Shown here piece by piece: positions 27,886 through 43,070 of a DNA stretch of 64,000 bases. This DNA comes from Candidatus Beckwithbacteria bacterium GW2011_GWC1_49_16. GTDB taxonomy: Bacteria > Patescibacteriota > Microgenomatia > UBA1400 > CG1-02-47-37. Under the pieces are notes generated by a model. It saw nothing but the letters and a program-made list of their open reading frames with translations. It was not told where the DNA came from and made no database searches. The stretch covers positions 192,193 through 256,192 of the forward strand of contig CP011210.1 of assembly GCA_001029675.1 (NCBI GenBank), read 5' to 3'. The position numbers were made by a program, and so were the translations under genes. Each line of letters starts with the position of its first letter. Position 1 is the first letter of the stretch.

Positions 27886-28242
27886 ATGCCGGAAGTGTTA
27901 ATGGCGGTTTTGCCAATGATTTTATGGTTTGTCGAGCGCTTATTGCCTTTTCCGGCAGTAGTGGAAGAGGTGGCCAAGGCTTTGGTGGTGGTTAGGGCTG
28001 ATGGGCGGCGCCAAGCTTTCTTCTTGGGTTTGATTTTCGGCTTGTCCGAGGCTTTTTTGTTTTTAGTCAACGCCAACCTGCTGGCGGACTTGACCGGCTT
28101 TTGGCGGCGGCTACTTTTTACCGTGCCGATGCACGGCGTCACCGCCGGGCTGATTATGTTGTGGGGAAAACGCTACTGGTGGTTGGGTTTGCCTCTGGCG
28201 ATGCTGGCACACGCTTGGTTCAATCTAAGAATTGCGAGCTGA
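27886..28242 (+). CDS. small membrane protein with PrsW/CPBP-like motifs
   Basis: EEVAK (EExxK), MHGV (xxxH) and HAWFN (HxxxN) spaced as in CPBP/PrsW intramembrane proteases. Only 118 aa. Confidence 0.35.
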   Translation: MPEVLMAVLPMILWFVERLLPFPAVVEEVAKALVVVRADGRRQAFFLGLIFGLSEAFLFLVNANLLADLTGFWRRLLFTVPMHGVTAGLIMLWGKRYWWLGLPLAMLAHAWFNLRIAS

Positions 28243-30538
28243 CCCACCAGGATTGACCGGAGTCTTGCCGGCTAAAGTCGATACGGGACCAATCATCACT
28301 GGTTTCAAAGACATAAACATCCAGGCTGGTTTTGACGGCCATGACTACGGCCGCGGCCGGGTCGGGTTTGAAGCGTACGTTGACGCTTGAGCCTTCAGGC
28401 ACGGTCAGGCGTTTGGGAGTGGCCTCTCCCAGCACCTGTTTTTCCTGTTTGACGTTGACTTCTTGAGGCAGGGGTGAAGGTGAGGCCGAGGGTGAAGGTG
28501 AGGCCGGGGCGACTTCTAGGATTGTCGGTTCGGGTGCGCTTTTGGGCCGGAGTAAGGCCTGGGTGATGATGACGGTGACGATGGTGGTTGCCAGGATCAC
28601 CAGCGGGATCAGGGCAGGGTTAGATATAAGCCGCCGCCAATCACCCGGCGTTGCCGCTGCGGTCAACGATTTTGGTTTGGTTGCCTTGGTGGATTTAAAC
28701 CTGATCTGACGCATATAAATGGTCAGGAAGACAAAACCGGCAATGACAATGATGATGATTCCCCAGACGGCGACGGCCTGAACGCCGCCGATAAAGCCGA
28801 AGATCGAGCCGGTGCCCGAGGCTTGGGCTACCAGGTCTTGAAGACGGGCCATGTTGGTATTGACGCCATTAAGCTCGAGCTGGGCTTCGCGGTAGGTGCG
28901 GATGCGGTTTTCCGGGGCGATGGCTTTGCTTTGGGCTAAAAGAATTTTATTGACGGTGACGTCGATTTCCGACTTTAACACCGTGCCTTGGGCAAAGTAA
29001 CTGGTTTTTTCCAGCGGCCTTAAGAGTTCGGCTGCCTGGTTTTTGAGCGCATCCAGCTCGGAGGCCGTCAGCTGCCAAATGTCTTCAACCTCGACGGCCA
29101 CCAGCTTGGTTTCTTGGGGTTTTAAAGTGTAGGAGCCGGAGACAAACAACGCCTCTTCGGTGGTGTCGTAATGGGTTTCCAGGGACGGGTCGAGGCCGAT
29201 GATGTTTTCGGTTTTTAACTCCCGGGGCAGGAAAAACTTTAAGGGGACGGTTTGGCTGATGACGCTTGATGGGTTGGTGATGACCGCCCTAAAGATGATG
29301 CTGCCTTCTTCAAGCCATAGAGAGCGGATCGGGTCGCCCGGCCTGACGGCCAGAAGCTGGCGGTTTAAGCCAAGTAAGGCTTTGAGATTAAAAAGCAGAT
29401 TTTTTAAGTTGAGTTTTTTATCTTTGTTTGTCTTGGTGGGTTGAATCAAGCTGCCTCCGCCGGGATACTGGTTTAAGGCGAGAACCTGTTTTTCCATGGC
29501 GGTGACACTGGTGGTTAAAAGTGTTTCTCCCTGCCCTTGCCAGTTTTCCAGAAGCAGGGCCAGTTTTTGGTTTTGGTTTTCCAGAGCGGCGTCGCGGGCG
29601 GCGACATATGCCAGGAAACCAAAAAGCGTTGCTTGGGCGCTGGTATCGCCTGGGTGGCCAACAAAACTTTTCAACTGGTCTAGGTTTTGGTTCTGGACGG
29701 CTAGGTTAATGGCTTTGATTACCGGCGCATCCCAGTCATTAACTAGCGCGGTCAGAGCCGAAGGGTTAGTAAACAAAATGGCGCTGCCTGACTGGACCCA
29801 ATCATAAAGGGCTTGGGCGTGTTTCCGGCTTTGCTCGAGTTTGACGTTCAGGTCGGGAATGGTCTGGCCCTCCTCCAAAGACAAAGACACCACCGGGGCG
29901 TTGACCAGTTTTTCCAGAAGCACCCGCTGTTGCTGTTGTTCTTGGGTAATGGCGGTAATTTGCTGGGCCGGGCCGGAGGTGGAAGTGGTGACGGCCGAAG
30001 TCCAGATGTTGGCGATAAGATCGCCAAAGGTAGTCAAGGAGCGGGTGGAGTGATCCCAAATGTCGGCAATCAAATCGCCGAAGTCAGTTAAAGAGCGAGA
30101 AGAGTAGGACCAGACCTCGGCAGCGGTTAGTCCGGGAGAAGGCGAGGCGGCCGAGGCCGTCACCTCAAAGGTTTTGTCGATACATAAATAGTCGGCGCCC
30201 GAGCTGCAGCACAGAGTAGTCGGGTAAAGCCCCTCGGTCGTATCAATAGTCGCGTCGTAATGATACCAGGCGTCAATCGGGGCAGTGATGCCGTCAATGT
30301 CTAAAAAACTGCTGCCGTTAGGGTATGAGGCGGTCAAATCACAACTGGCGTCGGTATCCAAGGCGTACTCATCGTCATACAAAAACTCGCCGATGGTGCA
30401 GGTAGCGGAAGTGGGGCACTGTTGATAGGTGGCGGCTAGTGCCGGTCGGGCCGGGAGCAAAAAAGCCAGGGCAAGCAGGTAGAACATGCCATCAGCTTTT
30501 ATTTTTCTTGCTTTTGGTTGGGGGGCTGTCGTTTTCAT
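28220..30538 (-). CDS. large membrane-anchored surface protein with C-terminal SH3b-like domain
   Basis: Signal peptide likely from the internal Met (MFYLLALAFLLPARPALA). Internal TM helices, a tandem ~19-aa repeat (SRSLTDFGDLIADIW / TRSLTTFGDLIANIW) and an SH3-like C-terminus. Confidence 0.5.
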   Translation of the reverse strand: MKTTAPQPKARKIKADGMFYLLALAFLLPARPALAATYQQCPTSATCTIGEFLYDDEYALDTDASCDLTASYPNGSSFLDIDGITAPIDAWYHYDATIDTTEGLYPTTLCCSSGADYLCIDKTFEVTASAASPSPGLTAAEVWSYSSRSLTDFGDLIADIWDHSTRSLTTFGDLIANIWTSAVTTSTSGPAQQITAITQEQQQQRVLLEKLVNAPVVSLSLEEGQTIPDLNVKLEQSRKHAQALYDWVQSGSAILFTNPSALTALVNDWDAPVIKAINLAVQNQNLDQLKSFVGHPGDTSAQATLFGFLAYVAARDAALENQNQKLALLLENWQGQGETLLTTSVTAMEKQVLALNQYPGGGSLIQPTKTNKDKKLNLKNLLFNLKALLGLNRQLLAVRPGDPIRSLWLEEGSIIFRAVITNPSSVISQTVPLKFFLPRELKTENIIGLDPSLETHYDTTEEALFVSGSYTLKPQETKLVAVEVEDIWQLTASELDALKNQAAELLRPLEKTSYFAQGTVLKSEIDVTVNKILLAQSKAIAPENRIRTYREAQLELNGVNTNMARLQDLVAQASGTGSIFGFIGGVQAVAVWGIIIIVIAGFVFLTIYMRQIRFKSTKATKPKSLTAAATPGDWRRLISNPALIPLVILATTIVTVIITQALLRPKSAPEPTILEVAPASPSPSASPSPLPQEVNVKQEKQVLGEATPKRLTVPEGSSVNVRFKPDPAAAVVMAVKTSLDVYVFETSDDWSRIDFSRQDSGQSWWVSSQFLD

Positions 30539-30671
30539 TTAAAGCCCGCCTGAATTCGTTGGTGGCCCGGCGGATGCCTCGGGCCAGTTCCGGCAGTTTA
30601 TCGCCGCCGAAAAACAGCATCAAGACCAGGGCTATGACGATAATCTCGCCCAGACCAATATTGGCAAACAT
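30492..30671 (-). CDS. tatA: twin-arginine translocase TatA/E family protein, copy 1 (59 aa)
   Basis: MFANIGLGEIIVIALVLMLFFGGDKLPELARGIRRATNEFRRA. Too short for the ORF track. Confidence 0.8.
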   Translation of the reverse strand: MFANIGLGEIIVIALVLMLFFGGDKLPELARGIRRATNEFRRALNENDSPPTKSKKNKS

Positions 30672-30674
30672 TGA

Positions 30675-30842
30675 TTATTCTTTTTCTTTGATGGCCTCTT
30701 TGAGGTCTTTGGAGGCTTTTTTAATCTCCACCTTAGACTGGCCCAAATTTTTACCCATCTTAGGCAAAAATTTGGCGCCAAAGAGCACCAACAAAACGAC
30801 CGCTATGATGATAATCTCGGTCGTTCCCAGGTTAGCAAACAT
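30675..30842 (-). CDS. tatA: TatA/E family protein, copy 2 (55 aa)
   Basis: MFANLGTTEIIIIAVVLLVLFGAKFLPKMGKNLGQSKVEIKKA. Confidence 0.8.
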   Translation of the reverse strand: MFANLGTTEIIIIAVVLLVLFGAKFLPKMGKNLGQSKVEIKKASKDLKEAIKEKE

Positions 30843-30869
30843 GGTTTCTCCTTTCTTGTTGGGGTAATT

Positions 30870-31013
30870 TTATTTTTCTTTGCTGGCCCGCCTAAATTCT
30901 TTAATAGCTTGGCCAATACCCCGCATCAATTCGGGGATTTTTTTGCCGCCGAATAAAAGGATGATGATGACGGCGATGACGATGATTTCGGTGCTGCCGA
31001 TGTTACGAAACAT
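30870..31013 (-). CDS. tatA: TatA/E family protein, copy 3 (47 aa)
   Basis: MFRNIGSTEIIVIAVIIILLFGGKKIPELMRGIGQAIKEFRRASKEK. Confidence 0.8.
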   Translation of the reverse strand: MFRNIGSTEIIVIAVIIILLFGGKKIPELMRGIGQAIKEFRRASKEK

Positions 31014-31016
31014 TAA

Positions 31017-31196
31017 TTATTCACCCCCTTCATCTTCCTCTTTAAAGGCTTTTTGGATGTCTTTTTTGGCGCCTTTTAACTCCCGGCCGGCCTGGCCCAA
31101 GCCCCGGGCCAGTTCCGGTAGTTTTTTACCGCCAAACAGCACCAGTAAAACGACAAGAATGACGATAATTTCGACAGCGCCTAAGTTTTTAAACAT
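31017..31196 (-). CDS. tatA: TatA/E family protein, copy 4 (59 aa)
   Basis: MFKNLGAVEIIVILVVLLVLFGGKKLPELARGLGQAGRELKGAKKD. Confidence 0.8.
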   Translation of the reverse strand: MFKNLGAVEIIVILVVLLVLFGGKKLPELARGLGQAGRELKGAKKDIQKAFKEEDEGGE

Positions 31197-31911
31197 AACT
31201 TCTATTAAATATTAGCGTCAGTTCAAAAAGAAGTAAAGGGGGAATTGTCAGAATAGTTAAAGAGACGATGTCGTTGGGGGGGAGTAAGGCTACCAGGATC
31301 AAGATGGCGGTGTAAATATAGCGGCGGGAGCGTTTGAGGGACAAGGGCGACAGGACGTGAAGCTGGATCAGCCCGGAAAGGACGATCGGCAGTTGGAACA
31401 CTAGAGCCATGAGGATGCCGGTAGAGATGATTTGCCTTAAAAACCCGCTTAGATCCCAGAGGTTTTCGACGGCGAAGTCGGCCGAGACTTGGGTATAAAG
31501 GCTAATTATAAACTGGATGATCCAGGCGCCGAAGGCAAAGCCGACGACAAATAAAATCAGGCTGACGGGGTAGAGGCGTACCAGCAAGCGGTATTCTTTA
31601 GCCCTTAAAGCCGGGCTGATAAAGCGGATCAGATAAAAACCCAAAAGCGGCAGGGACACGCTCAAGCCGGTCAAGACACCGGAACTGACGGCCAGGTCAA
31701 TAAACTGGTAAGGGGAGGTCAAAACCAGGTTGATACCTTCGAGATTAAATAGGTGCATGATGGTTTTAATGATCGGTTGGTAATAAATAAAGCCCAGGGC
31801 ACCGCCGCCGATAAAGACGGCGATGACATGGAATAAGCGCTTTTGGGCTTCCTTTAAGTAGGGCAGGTATTTGGCAATGGCTTGGTCCCGGTAGTCTAAT
31901 TTAGGGCTCAT
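31189..31911 (-). CDS. tatC: twin-arginine translocase subunit TatC
   Basis: 6-TM protein with the TatC N-terminus (YLPYLKEAQKRLFHVIAVFIGGGALGF). Directly upstream of the tatA array on the same strand. Confidence 0.85.
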   Translation of the reverse strand: MSPKLDYRDQAIAKYLPYLKEAQKRLFHVIAVFIGGGALGFIYYQPIIKTIMHLFNLEGINLVLTSPYQFIDLAVSSGVLTGLSVSLPLLGFYLIRFISPALRAKEYRLLVRLYPVSLILFVVGFAFGAWIIQFIISLYTQVSADFAVENLWDLSGFLRQIISTGILMALVFQLPIVLSGLIQLHVLSPLSLKRSRRYIYTAILILVALLPPNDIVSLTILTIPPLLLFELTLIFNRSYV

Positions 31912-33245
31912 TTAAGTGAAGCTAGAGTGGCTTTGGTTTTGGCGTCTTTAAGGGTTTTGGCAGCTGAACCGGTGACGGTGTGGCCGCTGGTAATTACTTC
32001 ATCCCAAACACCATTGACGATATTAGTGATGTCGTCTCCGGTGACCGCGCCGCCGGTGTCAATGAATGTTCCAACACTGCCCACGCTTTGAGTCGAACCG
32101 GCAGTATTCCCCGAGAAAGTATTATGGAGGCGGATGCCGGTCCGGACTACCCCGTTACCGACATTGATGCCGTAGCTGGTATTGTTGTAGATGATATTAT
32201 TTTCAAAGATATTGTCGGTTGAGTTGCTGCCGGTGATGACCACTCCGTCGGCGGGCGTGGGGACTGTGCCGCTGCCGGTGACAATACATTTTCTTACCGT
32301 CGACAGGGTAGTGTAGTCACCCATATTGATTCCGTTACCCTTGCAGTTTTCCACCACACAGGTTTCTACGATTGTTCTGGCGCTTGAGCTGATATCGATG
32401 CCGCTGCCGGTCGCGCCATATACCCAGCAGTCTTCGATTTGTGCCCGGTCACCGGTAACGGTGATGCCGTTGTCAGTGCCGCCGGCGGCAGTTGTAATGT
32501 AAAAGCCGGATACCTCCACATTGTCTGCCTGAATATTGATCGTTGGGGAACCCTCGGTACCTGTTAGTTTGAATGGGTATCCTGGGCCTCTTAGTTTTAA
32601 GTTGTCAATGGTGATATCTAAGGTTTCGGTAGTGGTCACGCCGCCGCTGGTGGTTGATAAAGCAAAAATGATGTCGCCCGCGCCGGCGCCGGGGGTGGCT
32701 AGCTGTTGGGCCCGATCAAAAGTCAAGACCGCATTAGCTGGAGTGGTACCATCGTTTCCGTCATTGCCTTTGGTCGGATCAGGGTTCCAGTACCAAATAC
32801 TACCAATGGATTTATTTTTTCCCCGCAAAGATTCCAAAAGGTATAAAGTGGCGTAGTCGGCGTCGGCCTGGATGATCGTCGGCGAGGACGACTGGGCAAT
32901 CACCACTTGGGTAAAGGCAGTCGGGTAGATGGGATTGTTGGCATAGTCATTGATGGCCACCAAATTGCCGCCGGAAACAGTACAAAGGATTGTGCCGGAT
33001 AGGCCGTCTCTGGCCTCAAACGACAACCGCCAGTTATTGATCAGCTCCAAAGTAATGCCGATGTAAGAGCCGCCGCCCAGGGGTTGTTTACCGTAGGCAT
33101 TAGCAATCGTGCCGTAATCTAAGTTAATTAACTGTTCCTCATAAAGCCGGATTTGGTCGTGAAGATCCTGAATTTCTACCGAGGTCTGGGGGGCGTCCAC
33201 TTGGATAATTCTTTCGTATTTAAAAAAAGTTAATGCGGCAGGCAT
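31908..33245 (-). CDS. right-handed parallel beta-helix repeat protein (pectate-lyase/tailspike-like), no signal peptide
   Basis: Repeated GxxG/NxxI rungs: GITVTGDRAQIEDCWVYGATGSGIDISS...CKGNGINMGD...NNIIYNNTSYGINVGNG. Confidence 0.55.
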   Translation of the reverse strand: MPAALTFFKYERIIQVDAPQTSVEIQDLHDQIRLYEEQLINLDYGTIANAYGKQPLGGGSYIGITLELINNWRLSFEARDGLSGTILCTVSGGNLVAINDYANNPIYPTAFTQVVIAQSSSPTIIQADADYATLYLLESLRGKNKSIGSIWYWNPDPTKGNDGNDGTTPANAVLTFDRAQQLATPGAGAGDIIFALSTTSGGVTTTETLDITIDNLKLRGPGYPFKLTGTEGSPTINIQADNVEVSGFYITTAAGGTDNGITVTGDRAQIEDCWVYGATGSGIDISSSARTIVETCVVENCKGNGINMGDYTTLSTVRKCIVTGSGTVPTPADGVVITGSNSTDNIFENNIIYNNTSYGINVGNGVVRTGIRLHNTFSGNTAGSTQSVGSVGTFIDTGGAVTGDDITNIVNGVWDEVITSGHTVTGSAAKTLKDAKTKATLASLK

Positions 33246-33246
33246 G

Positions 33247-34092
33247 TTAAGAATCTAAATAAACTGAAATTTTTAATTCTGGGATCAAACGTTTATTTCT
33301 GTAAATATAATTTACATCAGGATTGATCTTAATCGCCAGATAATTTTTGGGAATCTTCGATAATTCTTGCCCGGTTTGATTAAAGCTTTGATTAGTCTCA
33401 TCAAGCTGAAAACAAATCAGCCGCATGGCTGATTTGGGTGAAAAGGGTAAGCCTGATTGGTTAATCACCAGTTTTTTTTGCCCTGCCGGTTGGTAAAAGT
33501 TGATCGGAATTAGCCCCCGGTCCATCAAGGCCACAAACCGGCCGATATTTTCGGCCACTACCCGGCTAAACTCTGTTTTTTTGGCTTTTTGACCGGGGTG
33601 ATCTCTAAGATGCTCTAAAAGGTGGCGGTTAACCAAGTGGATTTGTCCTCGTTTGTCTTGAGCAAAAAACACTAATGAATTGTTGTATTGAAACAGGGGA
33701 GTCAATCGGTATTGTTTAAAAATTGGTACAATTTTCTCATCAATTCTGGCCGCAGTTAGATCAAGTAAATTCGGATCATTGACCAAAAAGGCCCTAGTTT
33801 TGGTGTTATAAATTCTTAATCTCAAGTTTTTGACGGCAATTTTTACTAGATTTACCGTCAAATTATCGTTGGCAGCACAAGTCAAAACAATTTGTTTTGT
33901 CCGGGTGTTTATTTTCATTGCCGCCATCATTTTTGTCTCTGGGTAAGATATCAGCAAGGTTTGATTTTTACCCTTTTTTACCTCAACTTCTCCGGTAAAG
34001 GTTAAAAGATAGTCGTTGATTTTTTGTAAGCACTTTTGTAAGTTGACAGAAGAGTTGGTGCTTATCAGCCTATAGGTTACAAGCTTTGCCAT
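33247..34092 (-). CDS. hypothetical protein
   Basis: 281-aa ORF. No recognisable domain. Confidence 0.4.
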   Translation of the reverse strand: MAKLVTYRLISTNSSVNLQKCLQKINDYLLTFTGEVEVKKGKNQTLLISYPETKMMAAMKINTRTKQIVLTCAANDNLTVNLVKIAVKNLRLRIYNTKTRAFLVNDPNLLDLTAARIDEKIVPIFKQYRLTPLFQYNNSLVFFAQDKRGQIHLVNRHLLEHLRDHPGQKAKKTEFSRVVAENIGRFVALMDRGLIPINFYQPAGQKKLVINQSGLPFSPKSAMRLICFQLDETNQSFNQTGQELSKIPKNYLAIKINPDVNYIYRNKRLIPELKISVYLDS

Positions 34093-34099
34093 TTAATGG

Positions 34100-34429
34100 T
34101 TACTTAACCAATTTTTTGAGCTTTTCGGCTTGGACAATGTCGTTTTTTAAAACTTTAATCATGCCGTCAATCCGCTTGAGTTCGTTTCTTTCTTTTTTGA
34201 TCGCTTCCTCAAATACTTTGATGTTCTGCTTGATTTTATTCTGGTATCTTTTTAAATCATTAACACCATAGCCGCGGATAATTTTGATTTTTTCCAGCTC
34301 TGCCTTTGACGGAATCGAGCTAACGATTGGCGTCGATGATGGCAATGATTTGGAAGAGCCTTTGGATCTCTTTTTCTTCGGCATCGATTTGATCCTGAAA
34401 TAATTTAATATTGCGGCGGCGGCGGGCAA
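34100..34429 (-). CDS. coiled-coil protein (possibly frameshift-linked to 34320..34502)
   Basis: Lys/Glu-rich heptad pattern. Overlaps a 60-aa ORF that carries a similar motif (NIKLFQDQIDAEEKEIQRL vs NIKVFEEAIKKERNELKRI). Confidence 0.3.
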   Translation of the reverse strand: MPAAAAILNYFRIKSMPKKKRSKGSSKSLPSSTPIVSSIPSKAELEKIKIIRGYGVNDLKRYQNKIKQNIKVFEEAIKKERNELKRIDGMIKVLKNDIVQAEKLKKLVK

Positions 34430-34506
34430 TTTCGTCCTCCAGGGCAGGCTTACTGTAGCGCAAGGCTTCCTCTTTGGTGACCGGAAGGGTCGGGTCGGTC
34501 ATCTGG

Positions 34507-34779
34507 TTATCCCCAAAAACGTTTTTTCCGGGCAGGTTTATTAGTTTTACCCTTGGCGATTTTGCTTGGTTTTTTGGCAGTTTTTTTACTGGCTAATTTG
34601 GCTGCTTTTTTTTGGGCTTTCTTTTTGGCGGCCAAAAGGCGGTCGATAGCCCGGGTCAGTTTTTCTTGAGAAGGTTCCCGGAAACGGACTACTCCTGACG
34701 CGTCCCGGGCGATGTGAAGGATTTTCGCACCACCATCATATGAGGAAACCGAGAGTTGATAGCCTTTATGGTATTTCAT
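34507..34779 (-). CDS. small protein with Lys-rich histone-H1-like tail
   Basis: C-terminus KKKAQKKAAKLASKKTAKKPSKIAKGKTNKPARKK. Confidence 0.4.
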   Translation of the reverse strand: MKYHKGYQLSVSSYDGGAKILHIARDASGVVRFREPSQEKLTRAIDRLLAAKKKAQKKAAKLASKKTAKKPSKIAKGKTNKPARKKRFWG

Positions 34780-34785
34780 AAGTTA

Positions 34786-37338
34786 TTAACTAAAGATCGT
34801 ATCGGTGCTTCTAATCACAGACACGGTCATGCCGTTACTGGTAATTGTTGAGTCCTGTTCAAAGGGGATCATTCTCGGGGCAGCAGTAGAGTGCCGGGCG
34901 CGGACCCGGGTGAAAACAGTGGTGTCATAAACAACTTGGACTGTTTCCGAGTCTTCCGATCCGATCGAGCCGGTAGTTTCGTGAACATCGATAAATGGCA
35001 CATAAAGCGTGTCATTGGTGGCTTCCGGGGCAATCGGCAGGGTGTTAATTTCATAGCCGTCAGTGTTGGTAAAGCCGGTTACGGTGGTCATGTTAACGTT
35101 GTCATCGTCAACTACTTCGGTGATATAACCGACTGCGCCGTTGGCAGTGCGCCGGATTAAGTCACCCACTTTAGCGGTGGCAAAAGCACCGGTATCTTGG
35201 ATATGGGTGGTGGTATTGCCGGTGGCGTCTGATGTCAAACCGGTGGTTGAGTCTAAAGTGAAAACACTGCCGCTCCAGGAGGCAAAGCGGATTCGGTATT
35301 CGGTATTGGCACTATCATCCACAATTCTCAATACTCCGCCGACGGTTTTGCCTGGTTCGTCAATCCTGATTGTTTGGTTGACAGTTAAACTGGTGCCGCC
35401 GGCAGCCTCGCCGCCGACACAGGTGTAGTAGTTTTTTTCAATATCACCGCCAGAGCCGGTCAATCTAAAGACGGCGATTCTGTCGCCTTCAATCGTTTTA
35501 TTAACAGTAACGTTTACCTTAATTGGGGCCAGTCTCACTGTACCGCCGTCATCAACCAGCTGAAAATTATTTAAGTCAGAATCCAGACGATCGTTAAGGT
35601 AAACTCCTGGGGCACAGAAGAACTTGCCGCCGGCGAAGGTGCCGAAAGGAGCGGCGCTGATTGGGGTAATGGTAGCGATTGTTGCCCCGGTTGGGTTTAT
35701 AGTTACACCGCCGCCGGTAATGCTACCGCCGCCGGCAGTAAAAGTTCCCCGGGAATCTCTTAAAATCAGGATATCATCTGTAGAGTTATGGTTAGTACAG
35801 GTGCCAGTTGCGCCGGTGCCGGCTTGGGTGACTACTGTTCCGGTAGTGATAGTGCCGTCGTCGCTGGTATAGCCGGAGATTTTGTAATCAGAGCCGATAT
35901 AAGATTCGCCGATAACCGTGGCTGCACCCGGGTCAATGTCGTCGGCATTTAGGTTGCGCCTGGTAATGTATTTTGTCCACTGGTAGACTTTGCCGACTGA
36001 ATTTTGATTACAGTCAATGACGATCGAGTAGTTTTCATTTGTCCCGTTTTCGTCAACGTCAAAACTGCCTCCGTCGGCCATTCCGCCGAAAGCAAGCGTT
36101 GCGGGAGTGCCGCTTTCCCAAAATGTCGTCCCTGAAGTTGTTGCCGGTCCGGCAACAACCGGAGCCGAAGCGGTGATCGTGCCGCTGCCGTCGCCATCTG
36201 ATTGAGTCGAGAAAACATATTCTTGAATGACGGTATCGCTAGCAGAAAAATCAGTGATCGGTTCACCGAGTAGGTAATAGTAAATATAGTTGTTGTCGGT
36301 ATCAATGGCGGTAATCACTCCGCGCTTGGTAGTTGTAGCCCAAGTATTGGCGCCGGAGTTGGTCCAATATATATAGTTACCAACATCAAAGTTTGCCACA
36401 GAGGCAGTCATTGTCATTCGGCTGTAGCCGGTTGGATTGTCCAGGTCAGTACCGGTTTGAAGCGGGATAGGGTTACGACCCACCACCCCGGCAGTAGTGA
36501 TCAAGTCCACAGTATAGTAGGAATAGGTTTTGGAGTATTGCCGGGCATAGACTTTGATCCAGCCTTCGTCGGTTTCCGCACCCAACTCCTGGACGTTGAT
36601 CAAAATGTCGATATGGTCGGTGGACAAACCTGTAGTTTTGTCGCTCCACCAGTCGCTTTGGGTGTCTTTGTAGGCGGTTAAATAGGCACCGTCTTGATAG
36701 ACGTAAATATGAGTGTAGTTTTCAATCGCACCGATGGAATAGATATTGGCCCAGAGCGATTCGCCGGCGGAAACGGCCGCGGCCGATTGGGTAGCGGTGT
36801 GGGTGTTACAGGTAATACCGCCTGAGGTTGAGTTCCAGTCGTTAGCGAGAGCATTGTTAGCTGGCCTGATCCACAAGGTGCTGCCGGCGCCGGTGCCTTT
36901 TACATCCAAGAGCGTCCCGGAGTCGAGGTCGGTGTCGTGGCTGATGGTCTCACCGATGTCGCCAGCAACGATATTGGTATTGTTGCAGGTGACTTTGACG
37001 ATACCGACATTGCCGGTGCCGTCACCCGGCAGGTCTCTTTGCCATTCAGCCGTTTTTAAAGCACCGCCATAGAGGTGTTCGACCGTGGTTCGGTCAATAA
37101 ACCAGGGGTCTTTATCGCCTGTGTCAATAATGCCGATGGTGTACTCGGTCGGGGTCTGGGCGGACATGGGCACGCCGTCGTCCATCTGGGTGAGTTCGTC
37201 AAAGAGGTCCTGGAGAGCCGAGTAGAGTTCATTGATCGTTCTGGTGCCGGTGTCCGATCCGGTCCAAACAATCCGCTTCTGCCGATTTTCGGCGCCGTAG
37301 TAAACTGTGAAGTCACCGCTTAAAATAGTGTCTGACAT
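34786..37338 (-). CDS. giant fibre/tail-fibre-like protein (850 aa, Thr/Gly-rich beta-rich, no signal peptide)
   Basis: N-terminal module ...TINELYSALQDLFDELTQMDDGVPMSAQTP... is shared with the 82-aa ORF at 38548..38796. Long low-complexity T/G/S/N-rich body. Confidence 0.5.
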   Translation of the reverse strand: MSDTILSGDFTVYYGAENRQKRIVWTGSDTGTRTINELYSALQDLFDELTQMDDGVPMSAQTPTEYTIGIIDTGDKDPWFIDRTTVEHLYGGALKTAEWQRDLPGDGTGNVGIVKVTCNNTNIVAGDIGETISHDTDLDSGTLLDVKGTGAGSTLWIRPANNALANDWNSTSGGITCNTHTATQSAAAVSAGESLWANIYSIGAIENYTHIYVYQDGAYLTAYKDTQSDWWSDKTTGLSTDHIDILINVQELGAETDEGWIKVYARQYSKTYSYYTVDLITTAGVVGRNPIPLQTGTDLDNPTGYSRMTMTASVANFDVGNYIYWTNSGANTWATTTKRGVITAIDTDNNYIYYYLLGEPITDFSASDTVIQEYVFSTQSDGDGSGTITASAPVVAGPATTSGTTFWESGTPATLAFGGMADGGSFDVDENGTNENYSIVIDCNQNSVGKVYQWTKYITRRNLNADDIDPGAATVIGESYIGSDYKISGYTSDDGTITTGTVVTQAGTGATGTCTNHNSTDDILILRDSRGTFTAGGGSITGGGVTINPTGATIATITPISAAPFGTFAGGKFFCAPGVYLNDRLDSDLNNFQLVDDGGTVRLAPIKVNVTVNKTIEGDRIAVFRLTGSGGDIEKNYYTCVGGEAAGGTSLTVNQTIRIDEPGKTVGGVLRIVDDSANTEYRIRFASWSGSVFTLDSTTGLTSDATGNTTTHIQDTGAFATAKVGDLIRRTANGAVGYITEVVDDDNVNMTTVTGFTNTDGYEINTLPIAPEATNDTLYVPFIDVHETTGSIGSEDSETVQVVYDTTVFTRVRARHSTAAPRMIPFEQDSTITSNGMTVSVIRSTDTIFS

Positions 37339-37432
37339 AGCAGGCTATAAAGTTCAGTATGGGTGGTTTTTCAAACCCTGTCAAGTAGGAGTCCTTGACA
37401 TAGACTTTAATAAAAGTTAGACTTTCGTTAAA

Positions 37433-38566
37433 ATGAAGTTATATAAAAGAAAGGTATTCTCTGTTATCCAACGGCTGGTGGAAAGAGAAAAGTCGTTGGT
37501 GATTACCGGTGGAAGACAGGTAGGTAAGTCATCGGTTTTGCTTTACCTAAAGGAGTGGTTAGAGCGTCAAGGTAAACGGACGGTTTTCTACGATTTGAAC
37601 TTTTCGGATGGGCCGTTTAACCTGGCAGCCGATTTAACCGCCAAGGGGGTAGGCGGCGACCAGCCGGTTTATGTTTTGGTAGATAACTGGCGGCCGGAAG
37701 CAGGCGGGGAGCTTGAGAAAAACTTTCATCTGGTGGCCGCCAGCGCGGTCAAAGCCTTTCTGCCCGCCTCGGCCCGGGCGGTGGAAGTGCTACCTTTGTC
37801 TTTTGCCGAGTTTTTAGAGTTTAAAGCGGCAGACCCAAAAGACGCGTCCCAATGGCCGGAGCTTTACCGGGAGTTTGTTAGCTACGGTGGTTTTCCGGCA
37901 GTGGTGCTGGAGCCGGTAGTGGAGCAAAAGAAGCAAGTTTTGTGGCAGATAGTGGATCTTTATTTAAGAAAAGACCTTAGCGATTTGGCCCGGATCAAGG
38001 ACCCTACTAAGTTTTACCAGCTGCTTTCGGCCCTGGCCGGCAGATCCGGTCAGGTTCTAGACATGATGGCTCTGACCCGGGAACTGAAAGTGTCTTTTCC
38101 CACCCTGAAAAAGTATCTGGCGATATTGGAGCAGACTTTACTGGTGCAGACGGTCAAACCTTACAGCCGCCAGCCGGAGAGGGAGATCAGCAAAAGCCCC
38201 AAGGTGTATTTTTTGGACAGCGGCCTGATGTCACTTTTATGGTTGAACCAGTTTTCAACCAAGATTCTTGAGCCGGTGTTTGCTACCAACGTCTTTGCCG
38301 AGTTGGTTAAGAAGGTGGGCCGGGAGGCGGTCGGCTTTTGGCGCACCAAAGCCGGGGCCGAGGTCGATTTTGTGGTTGAAAAGGGCGGCGGCGACCTGCC
38401 TGCCGGCAGGCAGATTTTGGCCGTTGAGGCCGAAGTCAACTTCGACCGCTTTAGCCCCAAAGACATCAATAGTTTCAAGCGCCGCTACGACCCCAAGCGC
38501 TGGCGGGTGATCGGGCTGACCGGAGAAAAAATGGCCAAAAACGGCTTTTACCCTTGGGAGATGTGA
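37433..38566 (+). CDS. AAA-family ATPase (AAA_14 plus DUF4143)
   Basis: Walker A VITGGRQVGKSSVLLYL and the DUF4143-type C-terminal region. Lies between the fibre-like genes. Confidence 0.65.
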   Translation: MKLYKRKVFSVIQRLVEREKSLVITGGRQVGKSSVLLYLKEWLERQGKRTVFYDLNFSDGPFNLAADLTAKGVGGDQPVYVLVDNWRPEAGGELEKNFHLVAASAVKAFLPASARAVEVLPLSFAEFLEFKAADPKDASQWPELYREFVSYGGFPAVVLEPVVEQKKQVLWQIVDLYLRKDLSDLARIKDPTKFYQLLSALAGRSGQVLDMMALTRELKVSFPTLKKYLAILEQTLLVQTVKPYSRQPEREISKSPKVYFLDSGLMSLLWLNQFSTKILEPVFATNVFAELVKKVGREAVGFWRTKAGAEVDFVVEKGGGDLPAGRQILAVEAEVNFDRFSPKDINSFKRRYDPKRWRVIGLTGEKMAKNGFYPWEM

Positions 38567-38796
38567 CCCTTTAAAAATTTTCGGCTGGCTTTATCAATAG
38601 TCCAGCCATTGATCAGTTTAAACTCGTCCTTGGCTTGGGCCTTTATCGGAATGTCGTAGCGCATGTTTTCCGGCTCGTCAAACAGATCCATGAGAAATGA
38701 GTATAGTTGTTTGGCGTTGTAACTTTTACCGCTGCCTTTTTCCTGGCAGCTGATGGTCTTGGTTTTAAAGTCGACTTGAAAAACTGTTGGCGTCAT
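38548..38796 (-). CDS. small protein sharing the N-terminal module of the 850-aa fibre protein
   Basis: NAKQLYSFLMDLFDEPENMRYDIPIKAQAKDEFKLINGWTI parallels TINELYSALQDLFDELTQMDDGVPMSAQTPTEYTIGII. Confidence 0.35.
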   Translation of the reverse strand: MTPTVFQVDFKTKTISCQEKGSGKSYNAKQLYSFLMDLFDEPENMRYDIPIKAQAKDEFKLINGWTIDKASRKFLKGHISQG

Positions 38797-38797
38797 A

Positions 38798-40735
38798 TTA
38801 GGTATTAGAATCTATTCTCAGGGTGACTTGTAGGTCTAACCCCGTGCTTGATGCGATCGTTGCAGTAGTGCTAAGCGGAACATATCTTGTGTATCCGGTA
38901 GAACTTTTTCGTACCCTGACATAACAATCAGCCGGAGTGGCTCCGGCAAAAGAGCCGGAAGCAACCCCAGAGGCATTGGTGTCGGTATTGAGAATCTCGC
39001 TATCGTCTGAAGTTAGGAACACAGCTGTCTGTGCCAGTTCTATCGGATCGGTGGCGGTATCGTTCACAGTTATGGTTATCGGCACTGATCCCTGGAAAAC
39101 GACTATTCCCGTATTGGTAGAGGGGTTTGAGGTGCCCGACTTTGATATCACCAGCGCGTCTTGGGGAGAAGTTGAGTTGTGGACGTCTTTTTCATTGCCG
39201 TTGAAGTTTAGGTCAGTGTAGGTAATCGGGGTAGTCACGCTGTAGGCATCGGATGAATCCCACCGATTGTCGGATCCATTGGCAAGACCGGCTGCACAAA
39301 CCAAATTATTATTATCAGTAATGCTGGTCACCGTGGCGTACGATCCGTCGATTTCGTTATAGGCTATATCGTTCACCGCCGCAGTGGTCAGGAAAGAGGC
39401 CGAGCTGTCCGTCAGCGTCACTCCTGTTGCGTCCGGGGTGGTGACTGTTCCCGTGGCCACTCCGGGTATGGTATCGTGCTCTATGCCGTGGGCTACATCA
39501 GAGCTGGCGTGGCTGTTGGCCAAGAAGTTACATTTTTGTATATTGATCGAACTGTTCCAAAGCAGGGCTGATCGGTTGCTGGCATCAGCCGTGCCGTCGT
39601 CATAGACGGTGGTGAAGTTACAGTTTCTGATTTGTACCCCTCCCACCGGATCAAACTGCTCGCAACCCGAAAAAGAACTTGAAAATAATTTGTGTGCCGT
39701 ATTTGTTCCCCAAGTTAGTGACCCAGATAAACTTTCAAAAGAACAGGCGTACCATTCGCTGGTGTTTACACTCCCGTTATCAAAGGAGATGTTGACGTGG
39801 TAGGTGGAATTACCTACTACTGACCAGCCGTTTCGTCCCGAATCAGAACCTACAGGCTTTCCGATTATTATCGAGTTTGTGCCCGTACCCCCGACACAAT
39901 TAATATCAAAATAGTCAAGCGGCACCGAATTGGTAAAAGAAGTGCCGTCATAATACCGGGGCTCTGCTACGAATATTTTTGAATTGATATCAGACAAGGT
40001 TGAGTCGGTGGCGGCAGTCGTATCTCCCAAAATTAATTTTCCGTTTAGTTCGACGGCTGTTTGTGAATCGTTTAGGGACTGGATAATGCCATGCCGATTG
40101 GTGGTTTCGTTGGCCAGAAGGTCGGCAACCAAAGCATCGCTGGTCGATGTTCCTGTGACTGTGATCCCGGTGCCTACCCTGATTTGATCAACCACCAGGT
40201 TGTCAAAACGGGCCGTAGCCGTGGTATCTGCGAATAGGCCAAAATATCTGACTGCTGCCAGGTTTATTGCCGTACCCGAACTGGCCGATACGGTTTCGGT
40301 TGGGTCCAGGACAAACCTTTTCCAACCTCCGGAATAGTTATCTTTGCCATAAAAATACCACAGGTGGTACTGCGTGGCCGATGGCGTGGAGCTCTCCAGA
40401 AATACCCCAAAACCACCGGTATTTTTGGTCTGCAGTAGTCCGGCCGCCAAAAAGTTCCCCCAGATGTACACCATTTGCCCAAAAGCATTGCCGCCGCCGG
40501 TAAAGTCTAGCGTGTTGCCAGCACCGATGTCTGCGTACAGTGCTACTCTTTTATTGTTGGAAGTAATTGTCACGGCACCCGTTCCTTCAATAGCGCCATC
40601 GGCCACACCTATTGATGGCGTAGCTCCGCCTGCGGTAATCTTGATCACTCCCCAGCCGGTTGTCGAATCGGCGGTATTGACCACGCCGTTGCTGGTTGGT
40701 CCGGTTGTTCCGTTCCAGGTGACTGTCGCTGCCAT
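38798..40735 (-). CDS. giant fibre-like protein (645 aa, beta-helix-like repeats, no signal peptide)
   Basis: T/G/S/N-rich low-complexity protein with repeated NxxG rungs. Confidence 0.5.
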   Translation of the reverse strand: MAATVTWNGTTGPTSNGVVNTADSTTGWGVIKITAGGATPSIGVADGAIEGTGAVTITSNNKRVALYADIGAGNTLDFTGGGNAFGQMVYIWGNFLAAGLLQTKNTGGFGVFLESSTPSATQYHLWYFYGKDNYSGGWKRFVLDPTETVSASSGTAINLAAVRYFGLFADTTATARFDNLVVDQIRVGTGITVTGTSTSDALVADLLANETTNRHGIIQSLNDSQTAVELNGKLILGDTTAATDSTLSDINSKIFVAEPRYYDGTSFTNSVPLDYFDINCVGGTGTNSIIIGKPVGSDSGRNGWSVVGNSTYHVNISFDNGSVNTSEWYACSFESLSGSLTWGTNTAHKLFSSSFSGCEQFDPVGGVQIRNCNFTTVYDDGTADASNRSALLWNSSINIQKCNFLANSHASSDVAHGIEHDTIPGVATGTVTTPDATGVTLTDSSASFLTTAAVNDIAYNEIDGSYATVTSITDNNNLVCAAGLANGSDNRWDSSDAYSVTTPITYTDLNFNGNEKDVHNSTSPQDALVISKSGTSNPSTNTGIVVFQGSVPITITVNDTATDPIELAQTAVFLTSDDSEILNTDTNASGVASGSFAGATPADCYVRVRKSSTGYTRYVPLSTTATIASSTGLDLQVTLRIDSNT

Positions 40736-40792: not shown

Positions 40793-41275
40793 TCAATCGT
40801 CATCGTCATCGTCATCGGGGGTAAAGGGGTTGGGGGCAGCCGCAATTTTTTCGTGAGCCGAGTGGAGCATTCCCTGAAGTAAAAGCAGGGCTGTCGGTAA
40901 AAGTAGGGCCAGACCAGCGGCCGCCAGAGAAAACGACCATTCCAGCGTTACCATCTTTGAGGCAGTAGCAGTTTGCTGAAGCGCATAAAGCTGCATCAAG
41001 CCGGCAATTACCAATAAGCTGCCGCCTTTAGCCAGGTGGGCCGATTCAAAGAAAGAAAAGACCCATAAAGGGGATAAAAACAAGCCTAAAGCCCGGATAA
41101 AAATAATCGCCGCGGTAAAGGGATAAGTGTTAAAGAAGGTTTGGTTTAAAAAGACGTAGGGCGAGGAAGGTTTAATGGTTAAAGGATCAATTCCGGACTG
41201 CAAAACATAGGTTAACAAAAACAGTCCGCCGATGATTGCCAAAACATATTCTTTGCCGATTTTCATTAAGCTCAA
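40793..41275 (-). CDS. hypothetical membrane protein with poly-Asp C-terminus
   Basis: 4-5 TM helices. C-terminal DDDDDD is encoded by a (GTCATC)n repeat at 40795..40818. Confidence 0.4.
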   Translation of the reverse strand: MSLMKIGKEYVLAIIGGLFLLTYVLQSGIDPLTIKPSSPYVFLNQTFFNTYPFTAAIIFIRALGLFLSPLWVFSFFESAHLAKGGSLLVIAGLMQLYALQQTATASKMVTLEWSFSLAAAGLALLLPTALLLLQGMLHSAHEKIAAAPNPFTPDDDDDDD

Positions 41276-41281
41276 TTTAGC

Positions 41282-42265
41282 CTAATCGTGCCAGCGTTTC
41301 AAGTGGAGGCGGTAGAAATAGAGGTTAGCTAGAAAAAATAATGCCGAAAAGGTTAATCCGATAATCAGCGTAGCTTTTGGCAGATTTTCCTCGGCGGCAG
41401 TTAAGACAAGCGAGGGTTTGGCGGTAACAAAAATCGTCCACGAGGCATTGCCGACAGTGACGTATTTTTTAGTATGTAGCAAAGCAGGAAATTTCATCGG
41501 ATCAAACTCCGGGTCGGAATCAAAGAGTAAGTGTTCAGTTCCGGGAGGGGAATCATAGTGATCGTGGAAGATGGCAAAGTCGATATCCGGCATGGGGTTT
41601 TGCCGGCCGAAAAGGGCGGTAAACAGGTCGGCATCCCGGAAAGCCAGGTTAACAAAACCGATCAGTTGACTGCGCCGTTCGTCGATACTTCTGGGTGTCT
41701 CGCCGCCGCGGTAAAGCGGTGCCGTTAGAAAAAATCCCGGCCGATTGGTGGTGACCAAAGTAAAAGGTTGACTGGAGAGAATTTCGCCGCTGTCGCGTAC
41801 CTGCTCTAAAAAGGCTTTTCGTTCCTGCCTGGTGTTGTGGTCAAATCCCAGGGCGGTTTCCCGGTCGGCAAGCGGTTCAATATAAACAGTAATCAATTTT
41901 TCGCCCCGGCGCTCAAAAAAGGCCACCGAGGAAATACCGGGATAGTCATTGAGTAGGTTCAGCGAGGCAGTATAGGCGCTAAATTCTTCTTTAGTAACTC
42001 CAGAGTTACTGCCGGCCCAGAACGCTTGGAGTCCCTTGAGAGTGGTGACGTGGGTGAGCATGCGCTCTTCAATCCACTGCTGCACCCGCTCGCTGGTTTG
42101 CTCGAAGATTTTTTGTTTTTCCCTTGCCAGAGTTTTCTGGGTCAGAGAGTATGCCAGCAGGGTAGTTACCAACAACAGAATATTCAGGCCGCTCAGCACC
42201 GTCAGGAATTTTTTATCCTGTTGGTGTTCGGCCGGTTGGTTAAAAGATGTCTTCAAAGTCGTCAT
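41282..42265 (-). CDS. CHASE-like extracytoplasmic sensor domain protein flanked by two TM helices (no output domain)
   Basis: TM at the N-terminus and at the C-terminus (LIIGLTFSALFFLANLYFY) with a ~250-aa periplasmic domain between. Confidence 0.45.
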   Translation of the reverse strand: MTTLKTSFNQPAEHQQDKKFLTVLSGLNILLLVTTLLAYSLTQKTLAREKQKIFEQTSERVQQWIEERMLTHVTTLKGLQAFWAGSNSGVTKEEFSAYTASLNLLNDYPGISSVAFFERRGEKLITVYIEPLADRETALGFDHNTRQERKAFLEQVRDSGEILSSQPFTLVTTNRPGFFLTAPLYRGGETPRSIDERRSQLIGFVNLAFRDADLFTALFGRQNPMPDIDFAIFHDHYDSPPGTEHLLFDSDPEFDPMKFPALLHTKKYVTVGNASWTIFVTAKPSLVLTAAEENLPKATLIIGLTFSALFFLANLYFYRLHLKRWHD

Positions 42266-43070
42266 AAATTAGGCCGTCGCGGCCGTCCCAATTAGTAGAA
42301 AAACCGGTACTGCCTGCAAAATAGCGGTAAGCGCCGGTATCGACGCCGGTTAAGGTTTCCCGTTGAATGTACCAGTTGCCGTTTTTGTCAGTAAAGCCGT
42401 AGTAGGCGAAGTCGGGATCGGAAGTGTCGTCGATTTGGGAGATGTTATAGCCGTCGGTGGGCTGTTTTTGAGCCGGATCAATGGCAGCGCCGCTTAAGTC
42501 TTTCAAGGCCACAGTGCCCGGCCCGGGCATGGAGCCGAAAAAGGTGGCCTGGGCTTCTTTAGACACCAACGACATGAAAAAGAGGGATAGTCCGGTCGAG
42601 CCGATGAGTTTAAGAAAGAGTCTCCGGTCGCGGTCGGAAATGCCGGCCGGCCCCGCCACTACCTTGCCGGAAAGCGGCGACTCACGGGTTTTTCCGGCAG
42701 TGGTGACGGTTTTAAAAAAAGTCAGCGGCTGAAAACCGGTGGGGAAACGGCGGGGCAGGGAACGGGGCCGGCGGACCAGCTCGAAGGCTAAATGATAAAT
42801 AAGCGGAACTAAAAGCAGGGGGAATACCAGCCCGGCAATTGAGCTGGCCGATTTGATCCCGGCCGCGCCGATCATGACTAAAACCAGCAAATTGTAAATT
42901 AAGAGCAGCCTTAAGAGCATAAGTTTTAGGGTATGGCAAAGACCGTAACCACGGTAATTAAAAGCAGGGTCAGGCTCAAGCGGAAGCCAAAGCTGGGTTG
43001 GAGCAAAAAACTTTTGAAAGAAAAAGAATCGCGGTAATGACTGATTTGGGGCTGATCGGGGAACAACCAC
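42240..43070 (-). CDS. hypothetical protein; C-terminal part likely a separate Tat-secreted protein
   Basis: Internal twin-arginine signal SDRDRRLFLKLIGSTGLSLFFMSLVSKEAQA is preceded by an in-frame GTG. The upstream part is hydrophobic. Confidence 0.4.
   Translation of the reverse strand: MVVPRSAPNQSLPRFFFFQKFFAPTQLWLPLEPDPAFNYRGYGLCHTLKLMLLRLLLIYNLLVLVMIGAAGIKSASSIAGLVFPLLLVPLIYHLAFELVRRPRSLPRRFPTGFQPLTFFKTVTTAGKTRESPLSGKVVAGPAGISDRDRRLFLKLIGSTGLSLFFMSLVSKEAQATFFGSMPGPGTVALKDLSGAAIDPAQKQPTDGYNISQIDDTSDPDFAYYGFTDKNGNWYIQRETLTGVDTGAYRYFAGSTGFSTNWDGRDGLIYDDFEDIF

Follow-up and report, generated by a model that had tools for sequence, protein, structure and literature searches.

The window analysed here, a 64,000-nucleotide stretch of the tiny groundwater organism Candidatus Beckwithbacteria bacterium GW2011_GWC1_49_16 (contig CP011210.1, positions 192,193–256,192; coordinates below count from its first letter), contains a locus in which a cassette of phage-type structural genes adjoins genes for a twin-arginine translocation (Tat) system and several membrane proteins. 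The proteins of this locus are named 'hypothetical' in every public record. All of the open reading frames (ORFs) flagged in an earlier, sequence-only reading of this DNA were found where it had placed them, and the cassette genes run co-oriented on the minus strand, as do the other genes below unless a plus strand is given. The cassette opens with p645 (645 aa; 38798..40735), modelled as a carbohydrate-binding module (CBM)-like jelly-roll, a right-handed beta-helix and CnaB/transthyretin-like beta-sandwiches. It continues with p850 (850 aa; 34786..37338), a highly conserved, all-beta multi-domain protein and the likely hub of the cassette, and with tandem paralogous coiled-coil proteins, p60 and p81/p109 (34100..34502; p60 at 34320–34502, p81 at 34100–34345, with the longest ORF reaching 34429). 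It closes with p445 (445 aa; 31908..33245), in which a conserved N-terminal adaptor-type domain of ~125 aa precedes a right-handed beta-helix. The stop codon of p445 overlaps the start of tatC (ATGA; tatC at 31189..31911, Pfam TatC E = 2e-36), and four tandem tatA paralogues follow (30492..31196; individually 31017–31196, 30870–31013, 30675–30842 and 30492–30671), which carry the TatA N-terminal motif and match Pfam TatA_B_E on public gene calls. Four membrane proteins frame this arrangement, p276 (42240..43070) and p160 (40793..41275) on the p645 side and p772 (28220..30538) and p118 (27886..28242, plus strand) beyond the tatA genes, and together with tatA and tatC they form what we call the platform.

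Threonine makes up 12.6–14.9% and glycine 10–12% of p645, p850 and p445, which are also rich in asparagine and serine, and none of the three has a hydrophobic N-terminus, a transmembrane (TM) segment or a 19-residue window with a Kyte–Doolittle hydropathy of at least 1.6. Composition and hydropathy scans agree here with the sequence-only reading, which had described three Thr/Gly/Asn-rich, beta-repetitive proteins without signal peptides or TM segments. A hydrophobic N-terminus is likewise absent from the genomic homologues of the large proteins (0/72, 0/55 and 0/21), and a twin-arginine signal (S/T-R-R-x-F-L-K, h-region, AxA) is absent from the three proteins and from their homologues. A Sec or Tat signal that might have emerged on re-annotation of the start sites does not appear: the large ORFs are already the longest possible, beginning at the first start codon past the upstream stop, so that no signal peptide can hide upstream. 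Pfam shows no SLH, LPXTG or CWB domain in the large proteins, and they have no other anchoring motif.

Within the cluster, Pfam recognizes only the Beta_helix of p445 (E = 2.9e-12, accompanied by a NosD-like match) and the DUF4143/AAA domains of an interleaved ATPase, and PHROGs matches no cluster protein; by Pfam or PHROG there are no sheath, tube, baseplate or tape-measure families. The sequences of p850, p645, p445 and p281, and profiles of the 850 family (A1), the p445 N-terminal domain (A2) and p281 (A3), gave nothing usable against the PDB. AlphaFold2 (AF2) models, all of monomers, predict p850 to be a compact multi-domain all-beta protein and not a fibre (predicted local distance difference test, pLDDT, 82; predicted template modelling score, pTM, 0.72) and p645 to be a compact multi-domain beta protein (pLDDT 92.8, pTM 0.84). 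From the earlier picture of 'giant fibre' proteins, the beta-rich character and the beta-helix of p445 stand, but 'fibre' does not quite fit the predicted shapes. Foldseek matches of the p645 model, all weak, include the Agl-KA alpha-1,3-glucanase, GH110, a capsule-specific polysaccharide lyase of Klebsiella K1, CBMs and CnaB2. The p850 model finds only generic beta-sandwiches in the PDB (TM-score ~0.1), with surface (S)-layer domains of Bacillus anthracis Sap as its weak top matches; in BFVD it finds many large, mostly unnamed phage structural proteins (E down to 5e-9, TM-score ~0.1), matches that would support phage kinship in flavour only.

The cassette in phage structural modules

Gene-family counts throughout refer to two sets, genomic loci and viral loci from IMG/VR, and L-numbers such as L006 denote single loci or contigs. 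Scanning IMG/VR with the 850-family profile (A1) recovered 79 loci. Where at least 3 kb of downstream sequence is available (57 loci), a 445-like gene comes after the 850-like gene in 47; of the 66 loci with an 850-like ORF, 38 have a 645-like gene ahead of it; and coiled-coil proteins of the p60/p81 family lie between the 850-like and 445-like genes in 15. Coiled-coil families 13 and 14 follow the 850-like gene in phage and genomic loci alike, and p60 is 50% identical to its copy in L012 (E = 6e-10). The 850-like, 445-like, 645-like and coiled-coil families are all common to the viral and genomic sets. Phage modules usually run from terL through the portal and head genes and several small genes to 645-like, 850-like, (coiled-coil) and 445-like, with head and packaging genes assigned by PHROGs (major capsid protein phrog_2522, E = 1e-77; portal phrog_113, E = 2e-67 and 3e-125); in 27 of 81 viral loci, the examined flanks contain a family for a major head protein, a portal or a terminase. 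The phages that encode cassette families have heads and portals of unrelated types. A siphovirus binned with Desulfarculales that has a lambda-J-type central fibre (PHROGs, E = 8e-141) also carries them, and further copies lie in contigs assigned to Gemmatimonadota, Bacteroidales, Planctomycetia and archaea. The suggestion that these proteins recall tail fibres or tailspikes is thus supported by the position of their homologues in phage structural modules.

At the protein level, residues 1–425 of p645 are 46–53% identical to proteins in phage contigs L009 and L010, one of which encodes a terminase, an HK97-type capsid protein and SU10-type adaptors, and its C-terminal 100–140 aa are conserved in the phage gene directly upstream of the 850-like gene. 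Phage copies 47–53% identical to p850 exist; many 850-family members share only profile positions 1 to ~290, and most phage copies of p445 align only over residues ~4–130 (40–53% identity), a few doing so over 360–440 residues. Judged from these alignments, the split between conserved and variable parts follows the logic of receptor-binding proteins, in which an attachment domain is combined with exchangeable parts. Searches with p850 and p645 by tblastn against 50,697 GenBank phage records returned nothing, and their phage relatives are known only from metagenomic viral contigs. Four of these (L015, L021, L032 and L039) are IMG/VR contigs of 349–452 kb, possibly jumbo phages, with hub copies 47–49% identical to that of the window; in L021, L032 and L039 a major head protein of the phrog_2522 family lies 6 kb upstream of the cassette. 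No holin-like or TatA-like small proteins were seen after the cassette in phages.

Tat linkage and conservation in cellular genomes

The cellular copies differ from the viral ones in what surrounds them. When only loci with at least 6 kb of sequence downstream of the 850-like gene are counted, 40 of 52 genomic ones have tatC there, at a median distance of 3 kb, as against 0 of 52 viral ones, and most of the genomic loci that lack it are contigs binned to organisms outside the candidate phyla radiation (CPR) that resemble phage DNA. The linkage also holds in reverse: when metagenome contigs are searched from TatC, 21 of the 30 loci with 3 kb or more of upstream sequence have a 445-like gene there, and 14 of the 17 with 6 kb or more have an 850-like gene. 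TatC, TatA, p772, p118, p160, p276, p281, p90, p82 and the ATPase were found in genomic loci only, and for the remaining ORFs of the window the 81 phage loci yielded a weak glycosyltransferase match and nothing else. The tatA copies that follow tatC in the window are 59, 47, 55 and 59 aa long, and other Microgenomates loci have one to three; the four-fold arrangement might relate to an unusually large Tat cargo.

The p850 family has at least 693 homologues that are ~50% identical over the full length, in Roizman-, Woese-, Beckwith-, Blackburn- and Levybacteria and WWE3, and 871 clusters in a representative library at 50% identity; a scan of one genome per species gave 66 genomic loci. The order 850, small ORFs, (281), 445, tatA/tatC is kept in three distant genomes, and synteny of the locus extends to Woese-, Roizman-, Levy-, Davies- and Shapirobacteria, WWE3 and others. 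Between close genome pairs, the ratio of non-synonymous to synonymous substitution rates (dN/dS) is ~0.03 for the 850-like gene and 0.02–0.06 for the 445-like gene, as low as or below that of tatC, and the cassette is under strong purifying selection. Its ORFs are intact and full-length in every genome examined, and the locus is vertically maintained in Microgenomates and WWE3 chromosomes. We searched for flanking att-like repeats and for a compositional island at the locus and found neither, and a precomputed Pfam scan of the neighbourhood (±10 kb around the cluster) contains no capsid, terminase, portal or integrase families, in agreement with the sequence-only reading.

Several metagenome-assembled genomes deposited as TPA_asm records (L091, L094, L095, L099–L101, L104 and others) carry the full Microgenomates-type locus, including tatC and p772, under titles that read 'uncultured Gammaproteobacteria' or 'uncultured Pseudomonadales'; these organism names look unreliable. 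An exact copy of the p850 sequence turns up in 78 blocks of a public assembly collection (JGI, ENA, NCBI and Logan), which indicates that this strain or a very close clone is present in many samples.

Within this conserved setting the cassette behaves as a unit. In a set of 41 Tat-linked loci, the 850-like protein and the 445 N-terminal domain show strongly correlated pairwise distances (Spearman rho 0.74), whereas cassette distances follow TatC distances only weakly (rho 0.20, Mantel p 0.001), and Roizmanbacteria carry differing cassette types. In several genome pairs (L117/L131, L128/L129 and L143/L151) the 850-like protein is far more similar, at 79–92% identity, than TatC (50–64%) or p772 (49–56%); one pair has 92% for the hub, 64% for TatC and 49% for p772. 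Such an excess of similarity in the hub over the platform could reflect either extreme constraint or lateral exchange of the cassette later than the divergence of the genomes. In a crude neighbour-joining (NJ) tree, Tat-linked cellular clades interleave with viral clades, and midpoint rooting places non-CPR and viral sequences at the base. We read this as a stable Tat platform whose cassette is now and then replaced, with phages as exchange partners. Because the cassette families occur with unrelated phage head types and in contigs attributed to non-CPR hosts, a viral origin is favoured, and the original transfer may then have run from virus to cell.

A twin-arginine membrane protein with a phage-like domain

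The Tat signal at this locus belongs to p276, which has two N-terminal TM helices, a canonical twin-arginine signal (DRRLFLKLIGSTGLSLFFMSLVSKEAQA) and an exported C-terminal domain of ~100 aa (its public gene call covers 42240–42920). The motif RRxFLK, h-region and AxA|AFFGS is present in 16 of 22 family members from genomic loci, and an invariant AFFGS(x)PGPG motif of the family stands right behind the AxA site.

The exported domain shares the pattern YxG...WxI(K/R)...G..F..W(D/N)xR..L(S/T)Y with fam10, a family of small phage proteins encoded directly upstream of the 645-like gene in phage modules. Comparison of the p276 C-terminal domain with fam10 by hhalign gave a probability (Prob) of 83% (E = 8.7e-6 over 57 columns), as against 14% and 0.3% in two unrelated control comparisons. 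With full-length alignments the pair scored 79.7% in a screen of 255 pairs of cell and phage families, in which only fam11/fam19 ranked higher (97.5%) and all others reached at most 19%. One fam10 member has a collagen repeat ahead of the shared domain, a layout that would be expected of a small fibre with a C-terminal knob. Given the place of fam10 upstream of the 645-like gene and its likeness to p276, the cell locus is colinear with the phage module, both running knob-like domain, 645-like, 850-like, coiled-coil, 445-like; in the cell version, by contrast with the phage one, a single protein joins the knob-like domain to a Tat signal and a membrane anchor.

The higher-scoring pair of that screen lies outside the window. 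The cell-only 172-aa family fam11 (L116:10761–11279 and 18 other genomic loci) is homologous to the phage family fam19 of ~70 aa (L047:8027–8284 and L044:12160–12375; hhalign Prob 97.5%, E = 6e-12), which flanks the cassette in phages, making fam11/fam19 a further piece common to phage modules and cell loci.

Accessory and neighbouring genes

Between p645 and p850 lies p82 (82 aa; 38548..38796), a separate copy of the p850 N-terminal module, to which it is related both by BLASTP (E = 2e-7, 35% over 55 aa) and against the p850 N-terminal profile (hhalign Prob 99.5%, E = 1.4e-22 over 81 columns). The sequence-only reading had recognized this shared module; it had also placed p82 downstream of p850, but on the coding strand p82 lies upstream of p850 and downstream of p645. 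The family (family 30) comprises 10 members of 81–118 aa, in the window and at nine other genomic loci, and no 850-like remnant was found downstream of p82. Family membership and context thus indicate a conserved stand-alone gene and not, as had been suspected, the 5' fragment of a fourth fibre gene. A similar relationship of the p445 N-terminus to the 850/82 module was considered and is not established (hhalign Prob only 23%, BLASTP negative).

The DUF4143/AAA ATPase (37433..38566, plus strand) is convergent with p82 and overlaps it. It matches Pfam DUF4143 (E = 5e-30) and, weakly, AAA_14, as well as the PADLOC candidate defence family PDC-S01 (AAA + DUF4143; PDLC04789, E = 3.7e-45), and PADLOC returned no other match. 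Homologues occupy the same place in the opposed orientation in L006 and L091 (40% identity in both) and in L093 (28%), and this recurrence at one spot in several genomes indicates that the gene is kept in the subclade and is not a recent insertion. The ATPase is absent from phage loci and limited to one subclade, and it is probably not a structural part of the cassette. ORF coordinates and Pfam are here in line with the sequence-only reading, which had noted the opposed ATPase and the interleaved coiled-coil and Lys-rich ORFs. The Lys-rich one is p90 (90 aa; 34507..34779), an accessory gene for a small N-terminal domain with a Lys-rich tail, whose family 16 occurs in 16 genomic and 0 viral loci. 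A further ORF, p281 (281 aa; 33247..34092), has no Pfam, PHROG or PDB profile match; its family 20 (12 genomic loci, 0 viral) is confined to the subclade of the window. A lone weak match of p281 to 'tail protein gp15' (E = 0.073) vanished when the family profile was used and was taken as chance.

Three conserved platform genes encode further membrane proteins. The small polytopic p160, with TM segments and an acidic tail, belongs to family 7 (27 genomic loci, 0 viral). The large envelope protein p772 has a Sec signal and two C-proximal TM helices; its family 4 spans 32 genomic and 0 viral loci, 26 of the 32 members have a hydrophobic N-terminus, and the homologue in L008 has an SH3_3 domain. 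The PrsW-like p118, another small polytopic membrane protein, has a conserved EExxK motif, which reads P(Y/F)PxxxEE(I/L)xK in full; the protein is kept at the locus in 31 genomic loci and 0 viral ones (family 5), and its L008 homologue weakly matches the Pfam PrsW protease; p118 could be a dedicated processing protease for a substrate encoded at the locus. Between p160 and p276 lies p327 (41282..42265), a membrane sensor with a CHASE domain (Pfam CHASE) that adjoins the locus; few loci were matched by tblastn, and the gene is kept in only some relatives. GC skew is positive over the whole 64 kb (0.05–0.33) regardless of gene orientation and is lowest at 32–41 kb, where the cassette occupies the minus strand.

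Discussion

We propose that this locus encodes a receptor-binding complex of phage type, domesticated by the cell and served by a dedicated Tat platform, exported in the folded state and displayed at the cell surface, a reading to which we give an even chance of being right and in which we infer export, surface display, the hitch-hiking route and the ligand. The core of the cassette would consist of p645 as a depolymerase-type beta-helix protein, p850 as the hub, the coiled-coil proteins and p445 as a tailspike-type protein whose conserved N-terminal domain would be the adaptor and whose beta-helix part would vary; the platform would be tatC, the four tatA copies and the membrane proteins p276, p160, p772 and p118. 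Like phage tail proteins, the signal-less cassette proteins would reach their folded and assembled state in the cytoplasm. The dedicated Tat translocon would then carry them across the membrane in folded form, probably as hitch-hikers on p276 or docked to it. The twin-arginine signal of p276 would export its phage-fibre-knob-like domain, which would stay membrane-anchored, and p82, as a separate copy of the N-terminal docking module of the hub, may regulate or cap the docking site. The ligand of the displayed complex would be a surface polysaccharide, borne either by a partner cell or by the envelope of the same cell, and the complex might also cleave it. Over time cassette types would be swapped with phages while the Tat platform was inherited vertically.

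Tailspikes of the P22 gp9 type and those of the multi-tailspike podoviruses and myoviruses G7C and CBA120 are the closest comparison. Like p445, they combine a beta-helix, a conserved N-terminal adaptor and an exchangeable distal part; branched tailspike complexes likewise have several receptor-binding genes side by side in the virion structural module, all without signal peptides, and the weak likeness of the p645 model to the Klebsiella K1 lyase belongs in the same context. Unlike phage tailspikes, however, the locus is chromosomal, lacks head, portal, terminase and tail-tube genes, is under purifying selection and is coupled to Tat; nor does p850 match any solved tail protein, or the adaptor domain of p445 any PDB sequence. 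R- and F-type tailocins, extracellular contractile injection systems (eCIS) such as Photorhabdus virulence cassettes (PVC), type VI secretion systems (T6SS) and gene transfer agents (GTAs) likewise consist of phage structural genes that cells retain for purposes of their own, with no replicating phage involved. In contrast to these, the locus has no sheath, tube, baseplate, tape-measure or capsid genes and keeps only the receptor-binding end; it is tied to a Tat translocon and membrane anchors, whereas tailocin-type systems are freed by lysis or act from the cytoplasm, and it is conserved across Microgenomates and WWE3, whereas their distribution is patchy.

For the proposed route out of the cell, the relevant precedents are Tat hitch-hikers and anchored Tat substrates, such as HybOC and DmsAB of Escherichia coli and the actinobacterial Rieske protein QcrA, whose Sec-inserted TM helices are followed by a Tat-dependent one. 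As in the hitch-hiker systems, a signal-bearing partner, here p276, is encoded beside signal-less folded proteins, and p276 resembles the Rieske protein in having two TM helices, an RR motif and a third hydrophobic segment (a dual Sec/Tat topology). What points to hitch-hiking here is circumstantial: the neighbouring position of the genes, their colinearity with the phage module and the likeness of p276 to fam10. Known hitch-hikers are cofactor-containing redox enzymes, whereas cofactor ligands are not evident in the exported domain of p276 and the cargo proposed here would be a glycan-binding complex of phage type. S-layer proteins and Gram-positive adhesins (B. anthracis Sap, CnaB pilins) are likewise multi-domain and all-beta, and the C-terminus of p645 resembles CnaB2. 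Unlike S-layer and sortase-anchored adhesins, though, the large proteins have no signal peptide, SLH domain or LPXTG motif, the fold matches reach TM-scores of only 0.1–0.2 over the whole query, and their rate of evolution is far below that of typical S-layer proteins. Of the idea of an ordinary S-layer or adhesin protein at a conserved chromosomal position, the conserved position in relatives is therefore real, but not the homology. A domesticated phage structural module is a known kind of thing; there is a real chance that the route of protein display is new.

Because homologues of the cassette are found in phage structural modules and an HTH_17 (excisionase-like) gene lies ~3 kb away, one could see in the locus a decaying prophage remnant, functionless leftover tail genes, as the sequence-only reading had done in the first of its two suggestions. 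This we reject as exceedingly improbable, since the ORFs are full-length in every genome examined, their order is the same across class-level lineages, dN/dS is ~0.03, integrase, capsid, terminase and portal genes are not found nearby, and neither att-like repeats nor a compositional island is present; the recurrence of the exact 850-aa protein in 78 public blocks also speaks against decay. The other suggestion, an undescribed non-Sec-exported fibrous system, comes nearer to the findings, although it missed the Tat context of tatC, four tatA genes and p276. A more substantial possibility is an intracellular anti-phage decoy, in which retained tail parts co-assemble with, titrate or poison the tails of infecting phages, the ATPase belongs to a defence island and the adjacency to Tat is incidental. 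Such a decoy would suit the PDC-S01 match of the ATPase and its recurrence at the same spot in several genomes, cassette proteins that lack export signals, phage copies as close to p850 as 47–53% identity, and a p82 that could compete for the docking site of the hub. We nevertheless think it improbable: Tat linkage is strong in both directions and extends to a translational overlap, the protein with the Tat signal itself bears a phage-fibre-like exported domain, the ATPase is found in one subclade while the cassette spans Microgenomates, and PADLOC found nothing further. Defence genes and islands are patchy and turn over fast, unlike a cassette with a dN/dS of 0.03 and near-universal presence.

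The same cellular function could also have arisen the other way round, from a native Microgenomates complex for envelope, adhesion or wall remodelling that phages repeatedly captured as host-binding tail proteins. The Tat-linked cellular clades are tight and numerous, with viral sequences interleaving on long branches, the cellular copies are highly constrained and the platform genes are cell-specific, all of which would fit a native origin. We nonetheless regard it as unlikely, if worth keeping in view. In phages the families accompany heads and portals of unrelated types, the lambda-J-type siphovirus from the Desulfarculales bin carries them too, and so do contigs assigned to Gemmatimonadota, Bacteroidales, Planctomycetia and archaea; a mainly viral module would account for this breadth more readily. 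Midpoint rooting, too, places non-CPR and viral sequences at the base, and the lack of signal peptides is natural for phage tail proteins but not for proteins of the cell surface.

Several points weigh against a domesticated, Tat-exported receptor-binding complex. Both the exit of the cassette proteins from the cytoplasm and their interaction with p276 are steps that we infer; the three large proteins have no twin-arginine motif of their own, and hitch-hiking is a rare mode of Tat transport. Homology between p276 and fam10 has moderate support only (Prob ~80%), and an assembled or trimeric complex of such sizes could surpass known Tat cargo. Shared gene order in related small genomes can overstate functional coupling, and, for part of a receptor-binding apparatus, the 850-like protein changes at an unusually low rate. 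The presence of a PDC-S01 candidate ATPase inside the cassette in several lineages would suit a phage-related intracellular role equally well, and any direction of transfer between phage and cell is tentative, the one tree behind it being a crude NJ tree.

We found no earlier description of such a locus in the literature searched on CPR/Patescibacteria, Tat, tail fibres and adhesins, although it is among the most conserved features of Microgenomates genomes that carry no annotation. On a conservative reading, phages and cells exchange this cassette, which in cells sits on a stable platform in the chromosome, and its families can serve as markers in searches for phages that infect CPR bacteria or their partners. 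If the proposal of a Tat-exported receptor-binding complex is true, phage receptor-binding modules would have been domesticated without the rest of the tail, and Tat hitch-hiking would reach past redox enzymes to large structural cargo. How the ultra-small CPR/Patescibacteria recognize other cells and attach to them is little understood outside Saccharibacteria, in which type IV pili are implicated. Going further, we can envision, as a speculation that is probably wrong but would matter if right, that Microgenomates, presumed episymbionts, recognize and grip partner cells with a phage-derived complex that passes folded through a dedicated multi-TatA translocon, hitch-hiked on p276, and renew its specificity by swaps with phages, possibly those that infect the same partners. 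That would constitute both a new display route and a new way to gain host-recognition hardware. More broadly, a surface-displayed complex of phage origin would give a whole class-level radiation a concrete candidate for its surface-recognition apparatus.

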